Source: a virus
Lineage: Duplodnaviria > Caudoviricetes
Virus record (IMG/VR): IMGVR_UViG_3300028242_000036
Span: 8,222-72,221 of that record
Length of the DNA: 64,000 nucleotides
Reading direction: 5' to 3' (one strand)
A program made the position numbers and the translations under genes. A model generated the notes under the pieces. The model saw only the letters and a program-made list of their open reading frames with translations, was not told where the DNA came from and made no database searches. Shown piece by piece: positions 6,552 to 45,543 of this stretch; position 1 is the stretch's first letter, and each line of letters starts with the position of its first letter.

Positions 6552-8513
6552 TTAATCTCCTATTAAAGAAGTTTCACCATACATAACACCTGTATCATAC
6601 CACTGTCTTGCTGTAAACTCTTTAATTCTTTCTTTGCTATATGACTTAGAAGGTGTTAAGAAGCCTACTACTCTTTGGTATGTATCAGCTTTAGGTTCAT
6701 TGCACTCAGGGCAAATATCAGTACCAACAAATCCGTGATGGTTTTTGCATACATTGATTTTTGTATTGTAGCAGAAGTAAATAACTCCCTGACTTGCAAT
6801 ATAATTTAACATTTCCCAAGCCATATCTGTATTGGGGAAGTTATTATCAATATTAATGTGTGCAATAGCACCACCCGAACACTTGTTATCAAGTATAGCA
6901 CTTGTACGGATTTTTTCATTAATGGTACACTTTTCGGTAAGGGGTATCCACTGATTACTATAAATAAAGTCATCGTGAACATCAAAAAGCATATTATCTT
7001 TTGCACATAAATTAACGGCGGCTCGTTCAGCAGGAACACTTTCAATATTAAATGAATACTCTGTTGTAAAGTTATCCTTTGTTTCATTTAAGATATTGAA
7101 AATCTTATCAGCAAATTCAATAGCCTCGTCTGTGTAGAATTTATTGCCAAACTCATCAGTATGAATATATCCGAATTTATTCATTACTTCATATAATCCT
7201 AAAATACCAATGGTGCAATACTGCTTATCCATTTCTACACCACCGTCACAATAGTTAGGCAGTAAGTTCTTATCAATATTTCTTTTAATAATATGTCTTA
7301 CTCTATCTAAAACCTTGCAACAAAGGGTCGTTCTCTTTTTGAGTAAGTTAAGATATTTTCTTTCGGTAATTTCTTCTCCAAGCTCATAAAAGATATGTAC
7401 AAGATTAATTGTATTTACCTTTACAGAACCAATACTTAATGCTGTACCACCGATAGAGTTAATAAATCCTTTAAGCTTAGAAGTGTCGGAAAGAAGTCTA
7501 CAACAATTTGATAATGTAGTTACATCGCCACTTACAAAGAAGTTACTATCATTCCACTGACAGTTGTGGTCTGAACACCATCTTGCAAATTCCTTATCTA
7601 CAAACTCACCATCTTTATAAAGAAGTGAATAGGTTAATACAGGGAATGTAAACATATTTTCCTTTCTAACATCAGAAACAACTTCCATAAATACTTTTTG
7701 GTGTTCAATGAACTCATCTACATAGTCAATAGCAAATGTACCATCGGGAAATTCAACTCCACCAAACAGTGCTGTATAATATTCTCTATCGAAAATAGAA
7801 ACATTAACAAAAGCTGATTGGTCAATTCTCATAAAAGGCTGATTAAGTCTATAAATAAGCTTTTGGAATGACTGTCTAAGGTAGTAATCAGGATTCTTGA
7901 TATAATAACCTGTCTCACAGTCTCTCTTCCAAAAATAATAAGTCCATACAAGAATATTAGGAATACCAACTGCACCACTACTTCTATTTGACATAAAGCT
8001 GATAAATTCAATTACATCATCAACAAATGTTGTAAGATGTTTAGGTGGCTGATTATTATAGTTATTTCTTAAAAAGAATAGTCCGTCTGTTGCTAATCTT
8101 GTAAGGTCATAAGCATAACAATAAGGGAAGAATGAAGTTGTGGGAAAATCGTGTAAATAGAATCCACCAATCCATTCGGTTTCAAGCCACTCTTTTGCAG
8201 TCTTTAAACCATACTTCTTTTTAATTTCATAAAATATCTTATTTGCTACAATAAGCTTATCAACTGACTTGCCCTTTTCACTTCTAAGAGATGCCACATC
8301 TTTATTTGAAGCATTTGCATTACTATCTATAGATACATCGGCTACATTCTTATCGACAAAAGCATCAATAAAATCTGAAAAGTTTAACTGAGAGTTATGA
8401 ACACCATTTAAGATTTCAAAATCTTCACCATATTTATCTCTCAAATTATCAATAGCTCTTTCAAAGTCTTTATTAAATTTATAATTTACTTCCATCTTAT
8501 GTCTCCTGTTCAT
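6552..8513 (-). CDS. nrdD: Class III anaerobic ribonucleotide reductase, no ATP-cone
   Basis: YLHD, YCYAY, SNCCRL finger loop, C-terminal CxxH/CPEC zinc site and YQRVVGFL glycyl loop. Confidence 0.93.
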   Translation of the reverse strand: MNRRHKMEVNYKFNKDFERAIDNLRDKYGEDFEILNGVHNSQLNFSDFIDAFVDKNVADVSIDSNANASNKDVASLRSEKGKSVDKLIVANKIFYEIKKKYGLKTAKEWLETEWIGGFYLHDFPTTSFFPYCYAYDLTRLATDGLFFLRNNYNNQPPKHLTTFVDDVIEFISFMSNRSSGAVGIPNILVWTYYFWKRDCETGYYIKNPDYYLRQSFQKLIYRLNQPFMRIDQSAFVNVSIFDREYYTALFGGVEFPDGTFAIDYVDEFIEHQKVFMEVVSDVRKENMFTFPVLTYSLLYKDGEFVDKEFARWCSDHNCQWNDSNFFVSGDVTTLSNCCRLLSDTSKLKGFINSIGGTALSIGSVKVNTINLVHIFYELGEEITERKYLNLLKKRTTLCCKVLDRVRHIIKRNIDKNLLPNYCDGGVEMDKQYCTIGILGLYEVMNKFGYIHTDEFGNKFYTDEAIEFADKIFNILNETKDNFTTEYSFNIESVPAERAAVNLCAKDNMLFDVHDDFIYSNQWIPLTEKCTINEKIRTSAILDNKCSGGAIAHINIDNNFPNTDMAWEMLNYIASQGVIYFCYNTKINVCKNHHGFVGTDICPECNEPKADTYQRVVGFLTPSKSYSKERIKEFTARQWYDTGVMYGETSLIGD

Positions 8514-37830: not shown

Positions 37831-39372
37831 TTATACAACTGTACGAAGTGCCTCTTCAACAGCCTTATATCTTTCAGAATTAAGTTCCTTAACTAATGCC
37901 TTATAAGGGTCAAGCTCACCATTCAGCACAAGCTTCATAATGTTTGCAGAGAAACCACTAACAAGTGCTACACCCATATCATTTTGCTTTACAGGAATTG
38001 TACCTGTTCTTGAAGCAAGATTCCAAAAGATAAGTCTCGGAAGTTTATAACCATACTGAGCATACTTATTTGCAATAACATCAAAGAGTGTTGCACTAAC
38101 ACGACCACGACCATTAGTTGTTGCACAACTGTCAAATTCCATATCTGAAAGAATAAGAACATTCTGAGGAATTTCATCCTGTGTCATATGGTTATTGATT
38201 GCTGTCTTTAAAATAAGGTCAAACACAGCTTCAATATTTGTATTTGCCACCTCATTGTGCTTTAATGCAATTTCAAGCTTATCGTGTAAAGAACTTGCAT
38301 TTGTAAAATCAACCAACTGTGGTCTATTACTAAATGTAATATACTTATCCTTAAACTCTCCACTACATCTCTCACCACAATAAATAGCAAGAGCATTTGC
38401 AACCTCTAAAGCAGTTGTAGAAGAATTACTATCAACTGGTGTCATCATAGAACCTGAACCATCGGCAACAACGATTGTGTCTTTAATATTGCCAATATCT
38501 TTAAGTGATTTCCACATCTGTTCAAGTGCTTCGTCATAAGAGCCTACTCTACTGCCCCAATAACCTCTGCTATACTTATGAACTACATCGTGTGGGAAAA
38601 GTACACTTGCATTAATTTTGGTTTCACCCTTTTTGAGACTTTCGAGATATGCTCTTCTTCTCTCTTCATCATTACGCATAAAGGCATTTGAATACTTGAT
38701 ATTTGCCTTTGAGGGAACAGTAGAATAATCAATGTTTTCCCATTCCTTTGCAGACATCTTACATTCAACAACATCAAGATACTTTCTAAGAGCAGAAAGG
38801 GTCTTACGATACCTTCTTGCATCCCAATCTAAACTGTTTCTAATGAGTGTAGCTTTTCTCTTAGTGTCTTTTGAACTTGCATTTTCACTCGGCATCCACT
38901 TTGCAAGAAGTGAAATAGGCTTGTCTTCACGCATATTCATCTTGTCAAGAGCTAACTGAGTTTTAATGCTTACTAATGCTTCATTAACAACTTCTACATT
39001 GCCACATTCAATAAGCGTAATAAGATTATCCCATCTTGAATATTCAGGAATAAGCTTGATTACTGCAATGGCAATATCAGTATGCTGTTCGGCAAGATAA
39101 TTCATAATTACTCTGAATGTTCTTCTTTCGCCAAGACCTTCTCTTACATCTGAAGCATAGAAAAGCCACTTAACTGCAAGCATTGGATTTTCATAATAAG
39201 CATCAATAAACTTATTGATAATTTCCTGCTCACTTGCTTTTCTTAAACTTGCAACTGCAAAGTTTAAATCAAGAAGGTTCTTACCTGTTGTAGCATAACC
39301 TACTGCACCATTTTCTGTAATGGAAATTCGATTATCCATTTCGTTCTTCATTGCTGACATAAAATTACTCAT
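37831..39372 (-). CDS. TROVE/Ro60-like + vWA domain protein (DUF2828 type)
   Basis: TENGA, DVREGLGER, SLLAKWMP, YRKTL, IDYSTVP, LFPHDVV, vWA MIDAS VADGSGSM, TNIEAVF, LSDMEFD, IFWNL, LVSGFS; start MSNF after GAGG. Confidence 0.85.
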   Translation of the reverse strand: MSNFMSAMKNEMDNRISITENGAVGYATTGKNLLDLNFAVASLRKASEQEIINKFIDAYYENPMLAVKWLFYASDVREGLGERRTFRVIMNYLAEQHTDIAIAVIKLIPEYSRWDNLITLIECGNVEVVNEALVSIKTQLALDKMNMREDKPISLLAKWMPSENASSKDTKRKATLIRNSLDWDARRYRKTLSALRKYLDVVECKMSAKEWENIDYSTVPSKANIKYSNAFMRNDEERRRAYLESLKKGETKINASVLFPHDVVHKYSRGYWGSRVGSYDEALEQMWKSLKDIGNIKDTIVVADGSGSMMTPVDSNSSTTALEVANALAIYCGERCSGEFKDKYITFSNRPQLVDFTNASSLHDKLEIALKHNEVANTNIEAVFDLILKTAINNHMTQDEIPQNVLILSDMEFDSCATTNGRGRVSATLFDVIANKYAQYGYKLPRLIFWNLASRTGTIPVKQNDMGVALVSGFSANIMKLVLNGELDPYKALVKELNSERYKAVEEALRTVV

Positions 39373-39429
39373 TTTTAATAACCTCACTTTGAATTTTAAA
39401 TTTTAATTTTAATATATATTTAAAATTCC

Positions 39430-39692: not shown

Positions 39693-39766
39693 TGGAGCAA
39701 CATAAGGTACTTGAAACCTTATTTTCTGATTGGAAATCAAATGTGTTACCGTTACACCAATGTTGC
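39693..39766 (-). tRNA. tRNA-Gly(TCC), encoded CCA
   Basis: GCAACAT acceptor, TTTGA-TTTCCAA-TCAGA anticodon arm, AAGGT-TTCAAGT-ACCTT T arm. Confidence 0.88.
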
Positions 39767-39776
39767 ATATAATAAC

Positions 39777-39906
39777 AAGACTCTATCAATAAACAATAGT
39801 CGCTGTCTTACCCCTTGACTACTACCTCATTCGGCAGGTAGGAATCGAACCTACGAATGGCGACTTGGCTTCTGTTATTTGAAAAAAGAATTGCTGTTAG
39901 AGTCTT
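39777..39906 (-). ncRNA. ACAGCAA-stem RNA copy 4; cargo is a circularly permuted tRNA (YrlA-like)
   Basis: AAGACTCTA-ACAGCAA...GCCAA-GTCGC, T arm GTAGG-TTCGATT-CCTAC, closed acceptor CTGCC-GAATGA-GGTAG, D arm GTC-AAGGGGTAA-GAC, GCGAC...TAGAGTCTT. Confidence 0.8.
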
Positions 39907-39913
39907 ATTTATT

Positions 39914-39989
<76 letters not shown>

Positions 39990-40149
39990 ATATATAATTA
40001 AAAAATTTTATAACATTAGGGTGTTATATACCCAACACTTCTCTTACAAGCTCTATCGGCAATTCCTGTCCGTAAGCAAGTGCAAGAATAATTAAACTTC
40101 TCTTTAACTTAGACATTTACATTCCTCCTTATTTTATTTTATTGATTAA

Positions 40150-40225
40150 TGGTGCAGATGGTGGGAGTTGAACCCGACTTAAGCACGATTAAAAGTCGTG
40201 TGCCTGACCGTTAGGCTACATCTGC
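40150..40225 (-). tRNA. tRNA-Lys(TTT), encoded CCA
   Basis: GCAGATG acceptor, CACGA-CTTTTAA-TCGTG, bulged T stem. Confidence 0.85.
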
Positions 40226-40228
40226 ATA

Positions 40229-40304
40229 TGGCGGTGACAGAAGGACTTGAACCTTCGACACAGTGGTTAACAGCCACTCGCTCTACCTACTGAGCTATGC
40301 CACC
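40229..40304 (-). tRNA. tRNA-Asn(GTT), encoded CCA
   Basis: GGTGGCA acceptor, AGTGG-CTGTTAA-CCACT, GAAGG-TTCAAGT-CCTTC. Confidence 0.92.
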
Positions 40305-40435
40305 ATAAAATGATAAGCGTAGCTGACATACTACCTTATCTTGCTTCTGTATTTTACAACTTGCAGTAGACCATTGTTGGGTTTTTACAAAAACGCCTTA
40401 TGTCAGATGTGTTTTCGGTGTTGTCCTTCACATTA

Positions 40436-40510
40436 TGGCAGGGGTAATAGGGTTTGAACCTATAATAATGGAGTCAAAGTCCATCGTGTTGCCAATTACA
40501 CCATACCCCT
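40436..40510 (-). tRNA. tRNA-Gln(TTG), encoded CCA
   Basis: AGGGGTA acceptor, ATGGA-CTTTGAC-TCCAT, ATAGG-TTCAAAC-CCTAT. Confidence 0.92.
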
Positions 40511-40582
40511 ATGTTTGGTGGTTATTAAGGTCAACCACCATAACCTTTTGAAAGAGGTTTATTATGACAAATCATCAACAAG

Positions 40583-40656
40583 TGGTGGAAAATGTCAGAA
40601 TTGAACTGCTCCCCACCCTCCCAAGGGGCGTGTGCTACCGTTACACCACATTCTCC
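40583..40656 (-). tRNA. tRNA-Pro(TGG), weak T stem, encoded CCA
   Basis: GGAGAAT acceptor, CGCCC-CTTGGGA-GGGTG, TTCAATT loop. Confidence 0.75.
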
Positions 40657-40662
40657 ATATTC

Positions 40663-40725
40663 AAGACACATTTCAGGTTTTATAGTTTAAAAGACTATTC
40701 CTAAATAATTTGCTGTATGTGTCTT
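40663..40725 (-). ncRNA. ACAGCAA-stem RNA copy 5; cargo is a Lys(UUU) anticodon stem-loop
   Basis: AAGACACA-TACAGCAAA...TTAGG-A-ATAGT-CTTTTAA-ACTAT-AAAA-CCTGA...TGTGTCTT. Confidence 0.78.
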
Positions 40726-40738
40726 TATTGATTAGGTT

Positions 40739-40825
40739 TTAATAGGGCAGTAAATCTGCACCGAAAATTAAACAAAAGAAATTCATAATTGATGTGAATA
40801 CAATATTGATAATATCAAGTGCCAT
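40739..40825 (-). CDS. 28-aa hydrophobic peptide
   Basis: MALDIINIVFTSIMNFFCLIFGADLLPY with GAAGGGAG RBS 7 nt upstream. Confidence 0.6.
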   Translation of the reverse strand: MALDIINIVFTSIMNFFCLIFGADLLPY

Positions 40826-40858
40826 AGTGTTACTCCCTTCTTTTAAATTTCTATATTC

Positions 40859-40998
40859 AAGATACATTTTTATTGATTTATCGTTGCTCTACCGACTGAG
40901 CTATCCTGCCATTGGGGGCAGGAGCAGGACTCGAACCTACGACCTACGGCTCTATGTTGCTTATCATTAAAAATTTACTTATTTGCTGTATGTATCTT
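40859..40998 (-). ncRNA. ACAGCAA-stem RNA copy 6; cargo is a circularly permuted tRNA with CCA in the acceptor loop
   Basis: AAGATACA-TACAGCAAA...T arm GTAGG-TTCGAGT-CCTGC, TCCTGCC-CCCAAT-GGCAGGA, D arm GCTC-AGTCGGTA-GAGC...TGTATCTT. Confidence 0.82.
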
Positions 40999-41000
40999 TT

Positions 41001-41087
41001 TGGTAGCGATAGTGGGACTTGAACCCACACGGTATTTCTACCCTCAGATTTTAAGTCTGATGTGTCTGCCTATTCCACCATACCGCC
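41001..41087 (-). tRNA. tRNA-Leu(TAA), long variable arm, encoded CCA
   Basis: GGCGGTA acceptor, TCAGA-CTTAAAA-TCTGA, GTGGG-TTCAAGT-CCCAC. Confidence 0.92.
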
Positions 41088-41541: not shown

Positions 41542-41624
41542 TGGTCGATGCAATTAGGAATCGAACCTAATCCTTGCGACTCACTCTGAGTCACTGTGCT
41601 ACCCATCCTCTACACTATACATCT
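41542..41624 (-). tRNA. tRNA-like gene with non-canonical anticodon arm (undetermined isotype)
   Basis: D arm GTGT-AGAGGATGGGTA-GCAC, GTGACTC-AGAGT-GAGTCGC, TTAGG-TTCGATT-CCTAA, ends ACCA. Confidence 0.7.
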
Positions 41625-41752: not shown

Positions 41753-41781
41753 ATTATAATATTATTTTGTTGTTTTGTCAA
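41753..41781 (-). promoter_or_regulatory. Sigma-A promoter P3 of the RNA island
   Basis: TTGACA-17-TATAAT. Confidence 0.85.
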
Positions 41782-41853
41782 GAGGTTTTTGAAACTTTTT
41801 TGATTTTTTCTTAAATCTTTTTGTTCGGCTTTCTTCGACCACTGACATACTCT

Positions 41854-41882
41854 ATTATAATATTATTTTATTCATTTGTCAA
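41854..41882 (-). promoter_or_regulatory. Sigma-A promoter P2 of the RNA island
   Basis: TTGACA-17-TATAAT. Confidence 0.85.
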
Positions 41883-42013
41883 GGGGTTTTTGAAATATTT
41901 TTCAAAAAGTTGGCTACCGATTTGAGGAAAGACTATACAGACACTTATATCCAACAGTTCGACAGCTCAATGCTTTCCTACAATCAAACTGTTCCCTCCA
42001 CCTGACATATTCT

Positions 42014-42042
42014 ATTATAATATTATTTTCTTGTTTTGTCAA
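42014..42042 (-). promoter_or_regulatory. Sigma-A promoter P1 of the RNA island
   Basis: TTGACA-17-TATAAT. Confidence 0.85.
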
Positions 42043-43133: not shown

Positions 43134-44204
43134 TTAATTTAGATATATGCTTTCGACACCTACCTTGATTAATTCTTGTAAGCTACCTACCCTTGCATTG
43201 ACAACTAAATGTCCGTCATTACCTGTTGGTACATAAGGTTCACAATAATTAAATTTACCTGCTATTTGAGCTACTTCATATCTGTCAAGTTCTTTTGCAC
43301 CCTTTTCTTTCATCATTGAATATGCTTCGTGTAAAATACCACTATGATACAAATTGGTTACAGTAATATAAGGATTGCCTACCCACTCCCTAATTACACG
43401 CACTCTTGCTTGTAATCCCTTTTGTTCCATAGGTACATCTATTTTCTTGCCACCAGCAGTTTTAAATACATAAACACTTTCAGGGAATCTTAATGTTCTT
43501 ACTCCTAAACCGTTTGTTAATATCTTGTTAGGGTCTTTTCTGCTTTGAGCAGTACCGTTATTTAAATAATATGCCTGTTGAGATATAGTTAGTTTAAGTA
43601 GTTCAAAACATCTTTCAGAACAACCAAATATCTTTCTTACATTCCCTTTTTTATCAGTAGCAACAATACCTTTCTCTTTAAAATCAATATCTGTCTCTTT
43701 AAGATTTATTAATTCATCAGGCTTTAAACCATTAAATAGTAATTCTAACATACACCTATCATTAAAATTAACCAACTTTTCTTCTATCTCTCTTACCTCT
43801 TGATAGGTTAGATACTTATTTTCCATAGCATTTTTATTCACATACTGTGAATAGTCTGTGATTATTTCAAATGGATTTAATGTTGTTAAATTGTGTTCAA
43901 TACAGTAATTTATATACTTTTTAATATATGATATACCTGTTCTTACAGTAGCCACCGATTTATAACTAAATTCATTTTCTATTAGTTCATTAACTTCGGC
44001 TAAATTAAAATTATATACACTTTTCCCAATTAGTTTTTCAAACTTATCAACCTTTAATAAAACACCCTTCAATGTTTTTGCTGTACTTGGATTTAAAGTA
44101 TTTAAAAAATCTTCTTTGTTGGCACTATCTATCTCAAATTTTCTATCTGCTAATGCCACTAAACCATTTCGGCATACTTTAACCTCTTTCTTTTTGTTAT
44201 TCAT
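43134..44204 (-). CDS. Tyrosine-recombinase-fold protein lacking catalytic Arg residues; candidate repressor
   Basis: DRCMLELLFNGLKPDELINLK (K at catalytic R) and ITVTNLYHSG (for HxLRHS). Confidence 0.72.
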   Translation of the reverse strand: MNNKKKEVKVCRNGLVALADRKFEIDSANKEDFLNTLNPSTAKTLKGVLLKVDKFEKLIGKSVYNFNLAEVNELIENEFSYKSVATVRTGISYIKKYINYCIEHNLTTLNPFEIITDYSQYVNKNAMENKYLTYQEVREIEEKLVNFNDRCMLELLFNGLKPDELINLKETDIDFKEKGIVATDKKGNVRKIFGCSERCFELLKLTISQQAYYLNNGTAQSRKDPNKILTNGLGVRTLRFPESVYVFKTAGGKKIDVPMEQKGLQARVRVIREWVGNPYITVTNLYHSGILHEAYSMMKEKGAKELDRYEVAQIAGKFNYCEPYVPTGNDGHLVVNARVGSLQELIKVGVESIYLN

Positions 44205-45543
44205 TCTCCCTCTCTCCTATAAACAAATTATATAATTTATTTTTTGCAGATTTATTTAAGTTATTAGTAAGATTAGATATATAAATATTATTCTGATTAT
44301 CTCTGCCAAAATCATAAGAAGAAAACACTTTAGATACTATTTGTATCCAATCATTCACTCCGTATAATTTTCTACTCATACCTATATATGCCATAAACAT
44401 ATATTTATTGGTTGAAAAATCATTCTTGCTTAAAAACTGACTAATGTGATTCAAGAAATTTACTATCCAATCTGCTACTGATTTTGCCATAGATTTATTT
44501 GTTAATAAGTCACTATAATTATCTGCAATAGCTGTGGCAAGCAAACTCTTTTTAGTATAACCGTCATATCTTAACTCTTGTTCAGTATTTTTTATCTTAT
44601 CTGATAATTCAAACAAAGGACTATCTATAATTAAATCAACTACTAAATTTTCTATTTTACTTTTGTCTAAAGTATTAACATACTCTTTTTTAATAGGTGT
44701 CTGCTTATTAATTTGCACCATAAAATCTTGTGCTTTTTGTTCTGTGAAATTTGTTATTGTAAGTTTCCAATTAAATTGAAGTTCAGGGTTTCTAATAATG
44801 GCTAATTGATTTGCTGTCTTTCTGTGAAAACCATCAAATATATCCATTTCACCACTAATGATTTTTAATTCACCAACAACACCATCGGTTGATGAAAATT
44901 CAATTTCATCATCACCGTTTCTCAAAATATTTATTTTGATTTCGTCTGCAAATTGTCTACCACTCAAAAGATTATCTGAAATTTCTTGTATCTTTTTTGT
45001 ATTAACATTAATTCTTTTAATACCAAACATATCTATTTTTGCATTTCTTTGGGTGTTAAAGTTATAAATAATATCGTTAGCTCTGTCAATAAGTGCCAAA
45101 TCTTGTGCCGATATAATTCCTGTATAATGACCATCTGACACTTTTAACATATTTGAAAAAGTATAAGGATACCCCTCTTCTTTTTCAGGGGTATAACTAT
45201 GTTTAGAAAAATATTGTTGTTCGGATAAAGTAAAATAATCCTTAACATCTAATTTAGTTATTTCTTCTTCTAAACCAATAGATTCATCACTTCTATCTTT
45301 AAGTCTTAATGCTTCTTGAAATCCTTCTGTAAAAACATAAAGCACAAATAGTTCTTTATCGTTTTTAATATCTAATGTTTCCAACTCTAATCTTCTGTTA
45401 AGTATTTTAATAGGATAACTACTCAATAAATTCTTTTCTGTAAATTTAGATTTTAGATATTCTTTGACTTGTCTATTTGTGCCATATTTATTTATCATTT
45501 GATTTAGTACATTAATTAAATTTGCGTTGCTTTGATTTAACAT
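44197..45543 (-). CDS. DndB/DGQHR-type ParB-like protein
   Basis: YNFNTQRNAK, DIFDGFHRKTA, FMVQINKQTP. Confidence 0.7.
   Translation of the reverse strand: MLNQSNANLINVLNQMINKYGTNRQVKEYLKSKFTEKNLLSSYPIKILNRRLELETLDIKNDKELFVLYVFTEGFQEALRLKDRSDESIGLEEEITKLDVKDYFTLSEQQYFSKHSYTPEKEEGYPYTFSNMLKVSDGHYTGIISAQDLALIDRANDIIYNFNTQRNAKIDMFGIKRINVNTKKIQEISDNLLSGRQFADEIKINILRNGDDEIEFSSTDGVVGELKIISGEMDIFDGFHRKTANQLAIIRNPELQFNWKLTITNFTEQKAQDFMVQINKQTPIKKEYVNTLDKSKIENLVVDLIIDSPLFELSDKIKNTEQELRYDGYTKKSLLATAIADNYSDLLTNKSMAKSVADWIVNFLNHISQFLSKNDFSTNKYMFMAYIGMSRKLYGVNDWIQIVSKVFSSYDFGRDNQNNIYISNLTNNLNKSAKNKLYNLFIGERENE

Follow-up and report, generated by a model that had tools for sequence, protein, structure and literature searches.

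A YrlA-like, circularly permuted tRNA mimic with a CCA in its closed acceptor loop, encoded in a phage tRNA operon beside a predicted Ro60-fold protein

Introduction

Ro60 proteins and their Y RNAs are conserved from bacteria to humans. YrlA, the tRNA-mimicking type of Y RNA, is known from Salmonella Typhimurium, many bacteria and 22 phages (Chen et al. 2014, PMC4201824), and a crystal structure of YrlA has been reported (Wang et al. 2018, bioRxiv 10.1101/312249). Wang et al. had already described most YrlAs as circularly permuted tRNAs whose acceptor loops are closed, and tRNA-like Y RNAs encoded near Ro60 on the same strand are known in bacteria and phages (PMC4201824; bioRxiv 10.1101/312249). 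The YrlA of M. smegmatis, with an acceptor stem of 7 bp, is cut at +1 by RNase P (M1 RNA) both in vitro and in vivo. After cleavage, the RNA is nibbled and CA is added, which gives a CCA terminus, and the two halves remain associated with Rsr (PMC4201824). The idea of maturation by RNase P opening to a CCA end is therefore already published for this YrlA.

Two phage systems resemble the locus described here. Thermus phage phiLo encodes a Ro60-fold protein with Y-like RNAs, Yrl1 and Yrl2, just upstream (PMC12135203; PDB 9KOP and 9L5Y). The phiLo RNAs use a CGAA motif, which sets them apart from our element, the phiLo protein is a canonical TROVE protein, and the passages of that report that were searched mention no tRNA-like cargo. 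In Escherichia phage Bas63, the gene for the Ro60-like protein gp130 lies directly upstream of a block of tRNA genes, and the authors guess that some of the “tRNAs” downstream of gp130 are Y RNAs, the RNA partner not being defined there (bioRxiv 10.1101/2024.10.10.617714). The reported role of gp130 is to counter the Ppl defence; we liken it to the protein described below as a Ro60-like protein.

Here, we describe a 140-base element from a phage tRNA operon. Since it combines a rotated tRNA look-alike on a shared handle with an adjoining gene for a Ro60-shaped protein, it is a variant of the known tRNA-mimicking, YrlA-type Y RNAs. We consider it probable (roughly 0.75) that the element encodes a small RNA of the Y RNA kind, in which a stem and handle would place a YrlA-type circularly permuted tRNA cargo on the Ro60-like protein. 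Its new features are an N-CCA that is encoded in the genome in exact tRNA register and recurs in about one-fifth of the family, and a cassette-like turnover of the acceptor hairpin. The locus may represent the Y RNA/Ro60 design in a second lineage, undescribed in the literature and RNA libraries searched, with ACAGCAAA as its handle, DUF2828 as its predicted Ro60-fold family and RNA arrays that mimic separate parts of tRNA.

Architecture of the element

The element occupies positions 40998-40859 on the minus strand of the window, by which we mean the whole stretch of 64,000 nucleotides analysed (positions 8,222 to 72,221 of IMG/VR record IMGVR_UViG_3300028242_000036). The window belongs to a viral contig of 72 kb that is about 46% complete and has nearly all of its genes on the minus strand. 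Read directly from stem to stem, the 140 bases have exactly the order of parts and the coordinates that the earlier note had proposed.

A closing stem frames the element. Its 5′ strand, AAGAUACAU (40990-40998), pairs with the 3′ strand AUGUAUCUU (40859-40867), both in the predicted fold and in the orthologs, and the 3′ strand is followed by a conserved G-AAUAU. The handle ACAGCAAA (40982-40989) lies within a 17-nt unpaired bulge of the 5′ strand (40973-40989). Beyond the bulge, the minimum-energy fold pairs 40963-40972 with 40868-40877 to give an upper stem, which is conserved in orthologs.

The tRNA-like parts follow in rotated order. GCCGU (40950-40946), a remnant of the 3′ strand of an anticodon stem, leads into the variable loop AGGUC (40945-40941), whose C48 is able to form a Levitt pair with G15, and then into the T arm GUAGG-UUCGAGU-CCUGC (40924-40940), the stem of which covaries. 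The 3′ acceptor strand UCCUGCC (40917-40923) and the 5′ acceptor strand GGCAGGA (40904-40910) form a perfect 7-bp hairpin, with C:G at pair 3:70. The loop between them (40911-40916) is composed of discriminator C (40916), CCA (40915-40913) and the spacer AU (40912-40911), which bears out the claim of a loop-closed acceptor. U8-A9 and the D arm GCUC-AGUCGGUA-GAGC (40886-40903) come next, with A14, G15, G18, G19 and A21 all present; the D arm alone, in DNA letters GCTC-AGTCGGTA-GAGC preceded by TA, spans 40901-40886, and its stem is invariant in seven orthologs. A26 and ACGAU, a remnant of the 5′ strand of the anticodon stem (40880-40885), complete the tRNA body, the latter forming 3-4 bp with GCCGU.

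The element thus has the full set of tRNA elbow nucleotides (U8, A14, G15:C48, G18G19, a UUCGA T loop and G53:C61), and the nucleotides for the tertiary contacts U8:A14, R15:Y48, G18G19 with T-loop positions 55-56, T54:A58 and G53:C61 are all there. It is the most complete tRNA copy of its array; ARAGORN calls neither a tRNA nor a tmRNA at this position. The fold energy is -36.8 kcal/mol (z -3.4), and none of 200 shuffled sequences folds equally well. In the minimum-energy fold, the closing stem is followed by the handle-bearing 17-nt bulge and a 10-bp stem, and both the acceptor hairpin and the D arm are formed.

The RNA operon and the Ro60-like protein

Three perfect TTGACA-17-TATAAT promoters (41753-42042, minus strand) head an RNA operon that lies just upstream of a DUF2828/DUF7788 gene, and the element is about 1.5 kb upstream of that gene on the same strand. 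Eight copies of the handle RNA are found on the minus strand between 39482 and 41360. Each has the motif AAG-N5-6-(U)ACAGCAA(A), 50-130 nt before the complement of the variable part and CUUG; the stems differ in sequence between copies, with pairing kept in each. The copies are interleaved with tRNA genes, seven ordinary tRNAs being found by ARAGORN in 39693-41087. One of these, tRNA-Leu(UAA) (41001-41087, minus strand), has its CCA ending 2 nt ahead of the element. Within the array, the minus strand is free of predicted terminators.

The presumed partner is a 518-aa protein encoded at 37831-39387 (minus strand) with Pfam matches to DUF2828 and DUF7788. The RNA array ends at its gene, and the protein matches PHROG 850, “RNA-binding protein”. 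Pfam TROVE has no match in the whole contig, and comparison of the protein sequence with PDB chains showed marginal TROVE similarity only (E 0.036-0.8). We therefore turn to the AlphaFold model (pLDDT 82.5), for which the top 12 Foldseek matches in the PDB are all Ro60/TROVE proteins, aligned over about 520 columns; they include phage phiLo Ro60 (the best match), D. radiodurans Rsr, Xenopus Ro60 and human Ro60. The predicted fold matches Ro60 over the full length of the protein. DUF2828 homologs occur in 709 GenBank phages, where the mycobacteriophage annotation reads “Ro-like RNA binding protein”. The protein family is present in many Felix O1-like phages and also in Listeria and Enterococcus phages, so tractable laboratory hosts are available for testing the system. 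Other partners may be absent from the data because the contig is about 46% complete.

RNA and protein are linked in both directions. At 95 DUF2828 loci, with a protein identity of 38-93%, 215 strict stem-plus-handle elements are on the strand of the gene and 0 on the opposite strand. Conversely, the RNA pattern handle-N25-55-GGTTCGANTCC alone retrieved 117 viral loci, and in 31 of them a DUF2828 homolog is inside the sequence retrieved (23 of 59 when loci of at least 8 kb are considered). On the basis of this strandedness and reciprocal retrieval, we assign the element to a Y-like RNA family tied to a Ro60-fold protein. A search of the literature and RNA libraries turned up neither a paper nor an Rfam family for the handle ACAGCAAA. 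[quoted passage not shown]

Some handle RNAs of relatives (L019:3640-3759, L017:6966-7080 and L025:3829-3909; collected loci are given L numbers) carry tRNA bodies in the normal order of D, anticodon and T arm, with the closing stem in place of the acceptor stem. The handle-RNA family therefore has more than one topology.

Kinship to YrlA

The order of T arm before D arm, with a looped acceptor, had been recognised as the YrlA architecture, and both the Rfam match and the published descriptions (PMC4201824; bioRxiv 10.1101/312249) agree with this assignment. The Rfam YrlA model (RF02553) aligns at its positions 1-114 to 40855-40968 (minus strand) with 42.7 bits and a local E value of 1e-8. This score is below the gathering score of 69 bits, and in control genomes ordinary tRNA features can yield weak YrlA matches.

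As in YrlA, the 5′ and 3′ ends of the RNA pair in a terminal stem that has a putative protein-binding motif on its 5′ strand. The cargo runs from the T arm through a loop-closed, acceptor-like stem of variable sequence to the D arm, the tertiary nucleotides are kept, and the gene for a (predicted) Ro60-fold protein is a few kilobases away on the same strand. By its published description, YrlA shares its strand with a TROVE-domain Ro60 ortholog located within about 4 kb, is bound by Ro60/Rsr and is modified by TruB and DusA (PMC4201824). Unlike YrlA, the element lacks the 5′ motif GNCGAAN0-1G, a putative Ro60 contact; its 5′ strand bears ACAGCAAA instead, placed in the 17-nt bulge, and this handle is conserved throughout the DUF2828-linked RNA family. 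It also differs in that its presumed partner is a DUF2828/DUF7788 protein without a Pfam TROVE match, in belonging to a set of eight handle RNAs interspersed with tRNA genes, and in an acceptor loop that encodes N-CCA in exact tRNA register. The element would work like a YrlA, from which it departs in the Rfam threshold, the 5′ motif and a TROVE partner recognisable by Pfam.

Conservation and turnover among orthologs

Look-ups of close protein relatives yielded seven orthologs beside partner proteins that are 81-93% identical. We aligned window positions 40855-40998 (minus strand), L013:4611-4753, L102:621-764, L224:3200-3340, L097:1880-2025, L099:3200-3361 and L100:956-1117. A conserved-flank pattern search of metagenome and viral contigs gave no further orthologs, and a search of IMG/VR for the same acceptor hairpin with any loop gave no more copies.

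All seven orthologs retain the T arm, D arm, handle and closing stem. Mean pairwise identity is 0.88 for the T arm block, 0.87 for the D arm and 3′ part, and 0.79 for the handle part; the anticodon-loop region reaches 0.54 and the acceptor hairpin 0.29. The RNAalifold consensus of this alignment includes the closing stem, T arm, acceptor hairpin and D arm, with two-sided changes at eight pairs. Compensatory changes are located in the closing stem, T stem and acceptor hairpin; one closing-stem pair, for example, is U:A in some orthologs and C:G in others.

Pairing of the acceptor strands is also seen in a sample that is blind to pairing, defined solely by the handle, then a T arm, then TAGCTCA. 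Here, the 7 nt after the T arm and the 7 nt before the D arm form a mean of 5.09 pairs out of 7, compared with a mean of 3.11 for shuffled partners (maximum 3.62 in 500 shuffles), and the sample contains 27 different acceptor sequences.

The alignment shows an acceptor hairpin and an anticodon-loop region that turn over fast, like cassettes, while the elbow is kept. Acceptor stem and anticodon loop are the parts read by most enzymes, and by the ortholog identities and the mimic counts given below they are thus the fastest changing. A kept elbow with exchanged ends points to recognition by tRNA-binding factors. The cassette-like turnover fits a role as bait or adaptor, without being proof of it.

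The CCA in the acceptor loop

Conservation of the CCA in homologs had been proposed as a check on the idea of a processed RNA, and it fails among the close orthologs: of the seven, only the window copy (W6) and L013 have a CCA, which is absent from L102, L224, L097, L099 and L100. The seven carry five unrelated acceptor hairpins. The window element and L013, its closest relative, share the hairpin with C-CCA-AU, L102 has 7 bp with the loop AUGAAAAGU, L224 has 7 bp with ACAAUAAGU, L097 has 6 of 7 bp with a 14-nt loop, and L099 and L100 have a hairpin of about 10 bp with a 25-nt loop. Because close orthologs swap the entire hairpin, the CCA is dispensable for the core function of the family.

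Across phages, N-CCA stands directly after the seventh pair, at tRNA positions 73-76, in 10 of 52 distinct permuted modules. These tallies require a closing stem, since a more lenient detector (“acceptor stem plus D arm”) fires on ordinary T arms as well (6.6%, compared with 18.5% of T arms linked to a handle). The most frequent triplet at this place is CCA (10), followed by CAA (4); at offset 0, CCA is found twice and at offsets of 2 or more not at all. All 10 N-CCA modules have 7/7 acceptor pairs and 9 have U at -1, compared with 11 of 25 among the remaining loops of at least 5 nt. CCA is followed by AT-rich spacers of 1-10 nt, which resemble the gaps between tandem tRNA genes of these phages. 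In some related pairs, such as L124 and L142, the acceptor stems covary and CCA is kept. Decayed triplets (CAA, CUA and CCU) are found on intact stems, for instance in L203 versus L164, and in many permuted modules the acceptor stem is capped by a tetraloop. Given the exact register in 10/52 modules and U-1 in 9/10, we regard N-CCA as a non-random feature of a subclass and not as a product of chance.

The tRNA(CAU) gene of the window (39914-39989, minus strand) has the acceptor strand TGCAGGA with a U1:A72 pair, identical to the acceptor strand of the element at 6/7 positions, and the tRNA(CAU) genes of relatives have discriminator C followed by CCA, like the C-CCA of the element. L013 has the same hairpin as the element, yet a different tRNA(CAU) acceptor. 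A source tRNA with exactly the acceptor stem of the element was found in none of the collected loci, tRNA(CAU) being the nearest (6/7). Most simply, the hairpin would be the end of a tRNA gene, imported or retained, that is intact in the subclass and eroded or replaced elsewhere. Accordingly, the best reading of the CCA is that of a tRNA-gene end retained in a subclass of possibly processed RNAs.

In a more far-reaching reading, RNase P cuts at U40911|G40910 and the AU is trimmed away, which gives a two-piece RNA whose free CCA-OH end is functional, possibly aminoacylated or a bait. We consider this possible, though on balance unlikely. Opening by RNase P is plausible in itself because the hairpin has the determinants of a bacterial RNase P substrate (7 bp, G+1:C72, U-1 and N-CCA, with C73-CCA in exact tRNA register) and because M. 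smegmatis YrlA, which is matured likewise, provides a precedent; by this analogy, we put the odds that the element may be opened somewhat below even. Like M. smegmatis YrlA, the element has a 7-bp acceptor stem, made up of seven Watson-Crick pairs (UCCUGCC/GGCAGGA). In M. smegmatis, however, CA is added after cleavage, whereas the CCA of the element is genome-encoded and not conserved among orthologs. The offset-1 register of N-CCA in 10 of the 52 modules, the U-1 that accompanies it in 9 of these 10 and the persistence of CCA on covarying stems (L124 and L142) all argue for processing. Several observations argue against a functional CCA end: CCA occurs in one of the five hairpin variants of the orthologs, many members have decayed triplets on intact stems or tetraloop caps, and there is no anticodon-independent identity element (G3:U70, long variable arm or G-1). 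Also, the loop is tight, because 2 nt only bridge A76 and G+1.

A function for the free CCA end strikes us as doubtful. We find it similarly improbable that RNAs of the N-CCA subclass are opened by RNase P, trimmed to CCA-OH and held as a two-piece tRNA body, tethered to the Ro60-like ring as a bait. If this were true, the 3′ end of the tethered body might undergo charging, extension or attack, the body serving for instance as a bait for toxins or enzymes directed at tRNA acceptor ends, and the swapped acceptor and anticodon cassettes would be the record of an arms race. The non-random one-fifth or so of modules that have an exact tRNA 3′ end and U-1 are candidate RNase P substrates like M. 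smegmatis YrlA.

Genes for Thg1-like proteins (3′-5′ nucleotide addition) are located at L013:12362-13198, in L220 (G001:C1:89362-89817) and in L221 (G014:C1:85859-86314). They occur in 2 of 10 records with N-CCA modules and in 0 of 5 with closed modules, which are small numbers from records of which many are fragments. Thg1-like enzymes could add G-1 opposite C73. The 72-kb fragment that holds the window has neither Thg1 nor RtcB.

The anticodon region

The statement that the anticodon loop is replaced by the link to the handle is correct for the window copy and L013, and incorrect for the other orthologs and for about half of the permuted modules. In the window copy, no anticodon relic is readable and no Y-U-NNN-R loop is in register. 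In the other orthologs, the loop just 5′ of GCCGU is CUUUUAA or UUUUUAA (Lys type) or UUGGUAA (Thr type), giving anticodon-type loops for Lys(UUU) in L102, L224, L099 and L100 and for Thr(GGU) in L097. A Y-U-NNN-R loop is in tRNA register in 29 of 55 permuted modules, compared with 3-12 at control offsets. Among handle elements of all kinds, 76 of 215 contain mimics of an anticodon arm, compared with 6.9 in shuffled sequences, Lys(UUU) being the commonest.

The suggestion that the RNA might be chargeable finds no support, as the element has no anticodon, no G3:U70, no long variable arm and no G-1. Identity elements for aminoacylation by Ala, Ser, Leu and His enzymes were looked for in the element and none is present. 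Judged by its nucleotides, charging of this RNA is unlikely.

A further reading takes the module as a decoy or sponge for host defence enzymes that target tRNA, displayed on the Ro60-like protein, with hairpin and anticodon loop as cassettes that would set its specificity. A conserved core next to a hypervariable acceptor hairpin (0.29) and anticodon-loop region (0.54) is what such a decoy would lead one to expect, and the excess of anticodon-stem-loop mimics in handle elements, as well as the anticodon-type loops in register in more than half of the permuted modules, points the same way. In addition, the Ro60-like gp130 of phage Bas63 counters the Ppl defence (bioRxiv 10.1101/2024.10.10.617714). 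However, the window copy itself is without an anticodon-type loop, and Ppl is proposed to act on DNA and not on tRNA. We hold the decoy reading tentatively, as an unlikely alternative.

Short handle RNAs elsewhere in the array (39482, 39572 and 40716, minus strand) have 5-bp stems and 7-nt loops that mimic the anticodon arms of Ser GCU, Ser UGA and Lys UUU. In relatives, the anticodon mimicked by the handle copy closest to the protein gene is that of Asn, Asp, Lys or Ile.

Proposed mode of action and remaining alternatives

We favour the reading of the element as a Y RNA with a YrlA-type cargo, and its mode of action may be pictured as follows. The element would be transcribed as part of the tRNA operon from the three consensus promoters, with its 5′ end abutting the CCA of tRNA-Leu, and would be freed from the precursor by tRNA-processing enzymes. 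The folded RNA is predicted to consist of the 9-bp closing stem, the 17-nt handle bulge and the 10-bp upper stem, leading to a four-way junction that would bear a canonical T arm, the 7-bp acceptor hairpin and a canonical D arm, with all elbow contacts intact. By analogy with Ro60 and Y RNA, the DUF2828 protein would bind the stem and handle (PMC4201824; PMC12135203; bioRxiv 10.1101/312249). The tRNA-shaped cargo might then recruit a tRNA-recognising factor to the DUF2828 protein, or else titrate such a factor. The C-CCA-AU loop would represent the retained end junction of a CCA-encoding tRNA gene. Opening by RNase P would yield pieces of 86 nt (40998-40913) and 53 nt (40910-40858), and this mode of action does not require it.

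The origin of the loop raises the question of whether the element is a non-functional relic, in which two halves of tRNA genes were brought together by rearrangement or tandem duplication in the tRNA cluster. N-CCA with a 2-nt AT junction does resemble the 2-4 nt gaps between tandem tRNA genes of the window's phage, and dimeric tRNAs can be false YrlA matches (Chen 2014, PMC4201824). On the other hand, the acceptor strands pair without a mismatch, the element is enclosed by the handle and a closing stem that covaries, and the architecture is conserved in seven orthologs and 52 distinct modules across phages. We regard a relic as very improbable.

Two-piece tmRNA comes from permuted ssrA genes. 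These genes and permuted tRNA genes share with the element the placement of the 3′ half first and a closed acceptor loop, which in their case is opened by RNase P and 3′ processing. They differ in that their products regain an anticodon loop or a tag frame and act in translation, whereas the element has no tag ORF, has C:G at 3:70 instead of the G3:U70 of tRNA-Ala-like molecules and is not called as a tmRNA by ARAGORN. That the element is a true permuted tRNA gene, whose product would be circularised to yield a decoding tRNA, as happens in Cyanidioschyzon merolae (Soma et al. 2007, as cited in bioRxiv 10.1101/312249), can be given next to no credence: its 3′ half is upstream of its 5′ half with the intervening loop at the acceptor end, but no 7-nt anticodon loop can be rebuilt from its termini, which form a 9-bp stem, 17-nt bulge and 10-bp stem without a bulge-helix-bulge motif, and a splicing endonuclease is not known in bacteria (bioRxiv 10.1101/312249).

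Other features of the locus

A second permuted tRNA-like module (39780-39897, minus strand), part of handle copy 4, scores 27.7 bits against YrlA. It has a 6-bp acceptor stem with the loop GCCGAAUG, and its orthologs in L097 and L098 are capped by AAUA. The first RNA after the promoters (41542-41624, minus strand) is tRNA-shaped, with a T arm and CCA and an aberrant anticodon arm. ARAGORN makes no call at this position in the window; the counterpart at L014:3971-4046 is called as “tRNA-???” with a 4-base anticodon.

Directly after the element lies a 28-codon ORF (40739-40825, minus strand) for a hydrophobic peptide, with AAGGGAG as its strong ribosome-binding site. It is followed by handle copy 5, which ends 5 nt before tRNA-Pro. 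In relatives L013, L014, L097, L102 and L222, the tRNA/RNA array includes called genes for proteins of about 30 aa, and the ending of the peptide is also found ahead of the ortholog in L099 and L224.

Upstream of the RNA operon, the window contains a gene for an MrpR-like, recombinase-fold protein and a DndB-like gene (43134-45543, minus strand), and in relatives a YorH-like gene is located downstream of the operon. These MrpR-like, DndB-like and YorH-like genes are SPbeta-like features and hint at a Firmicutes host.
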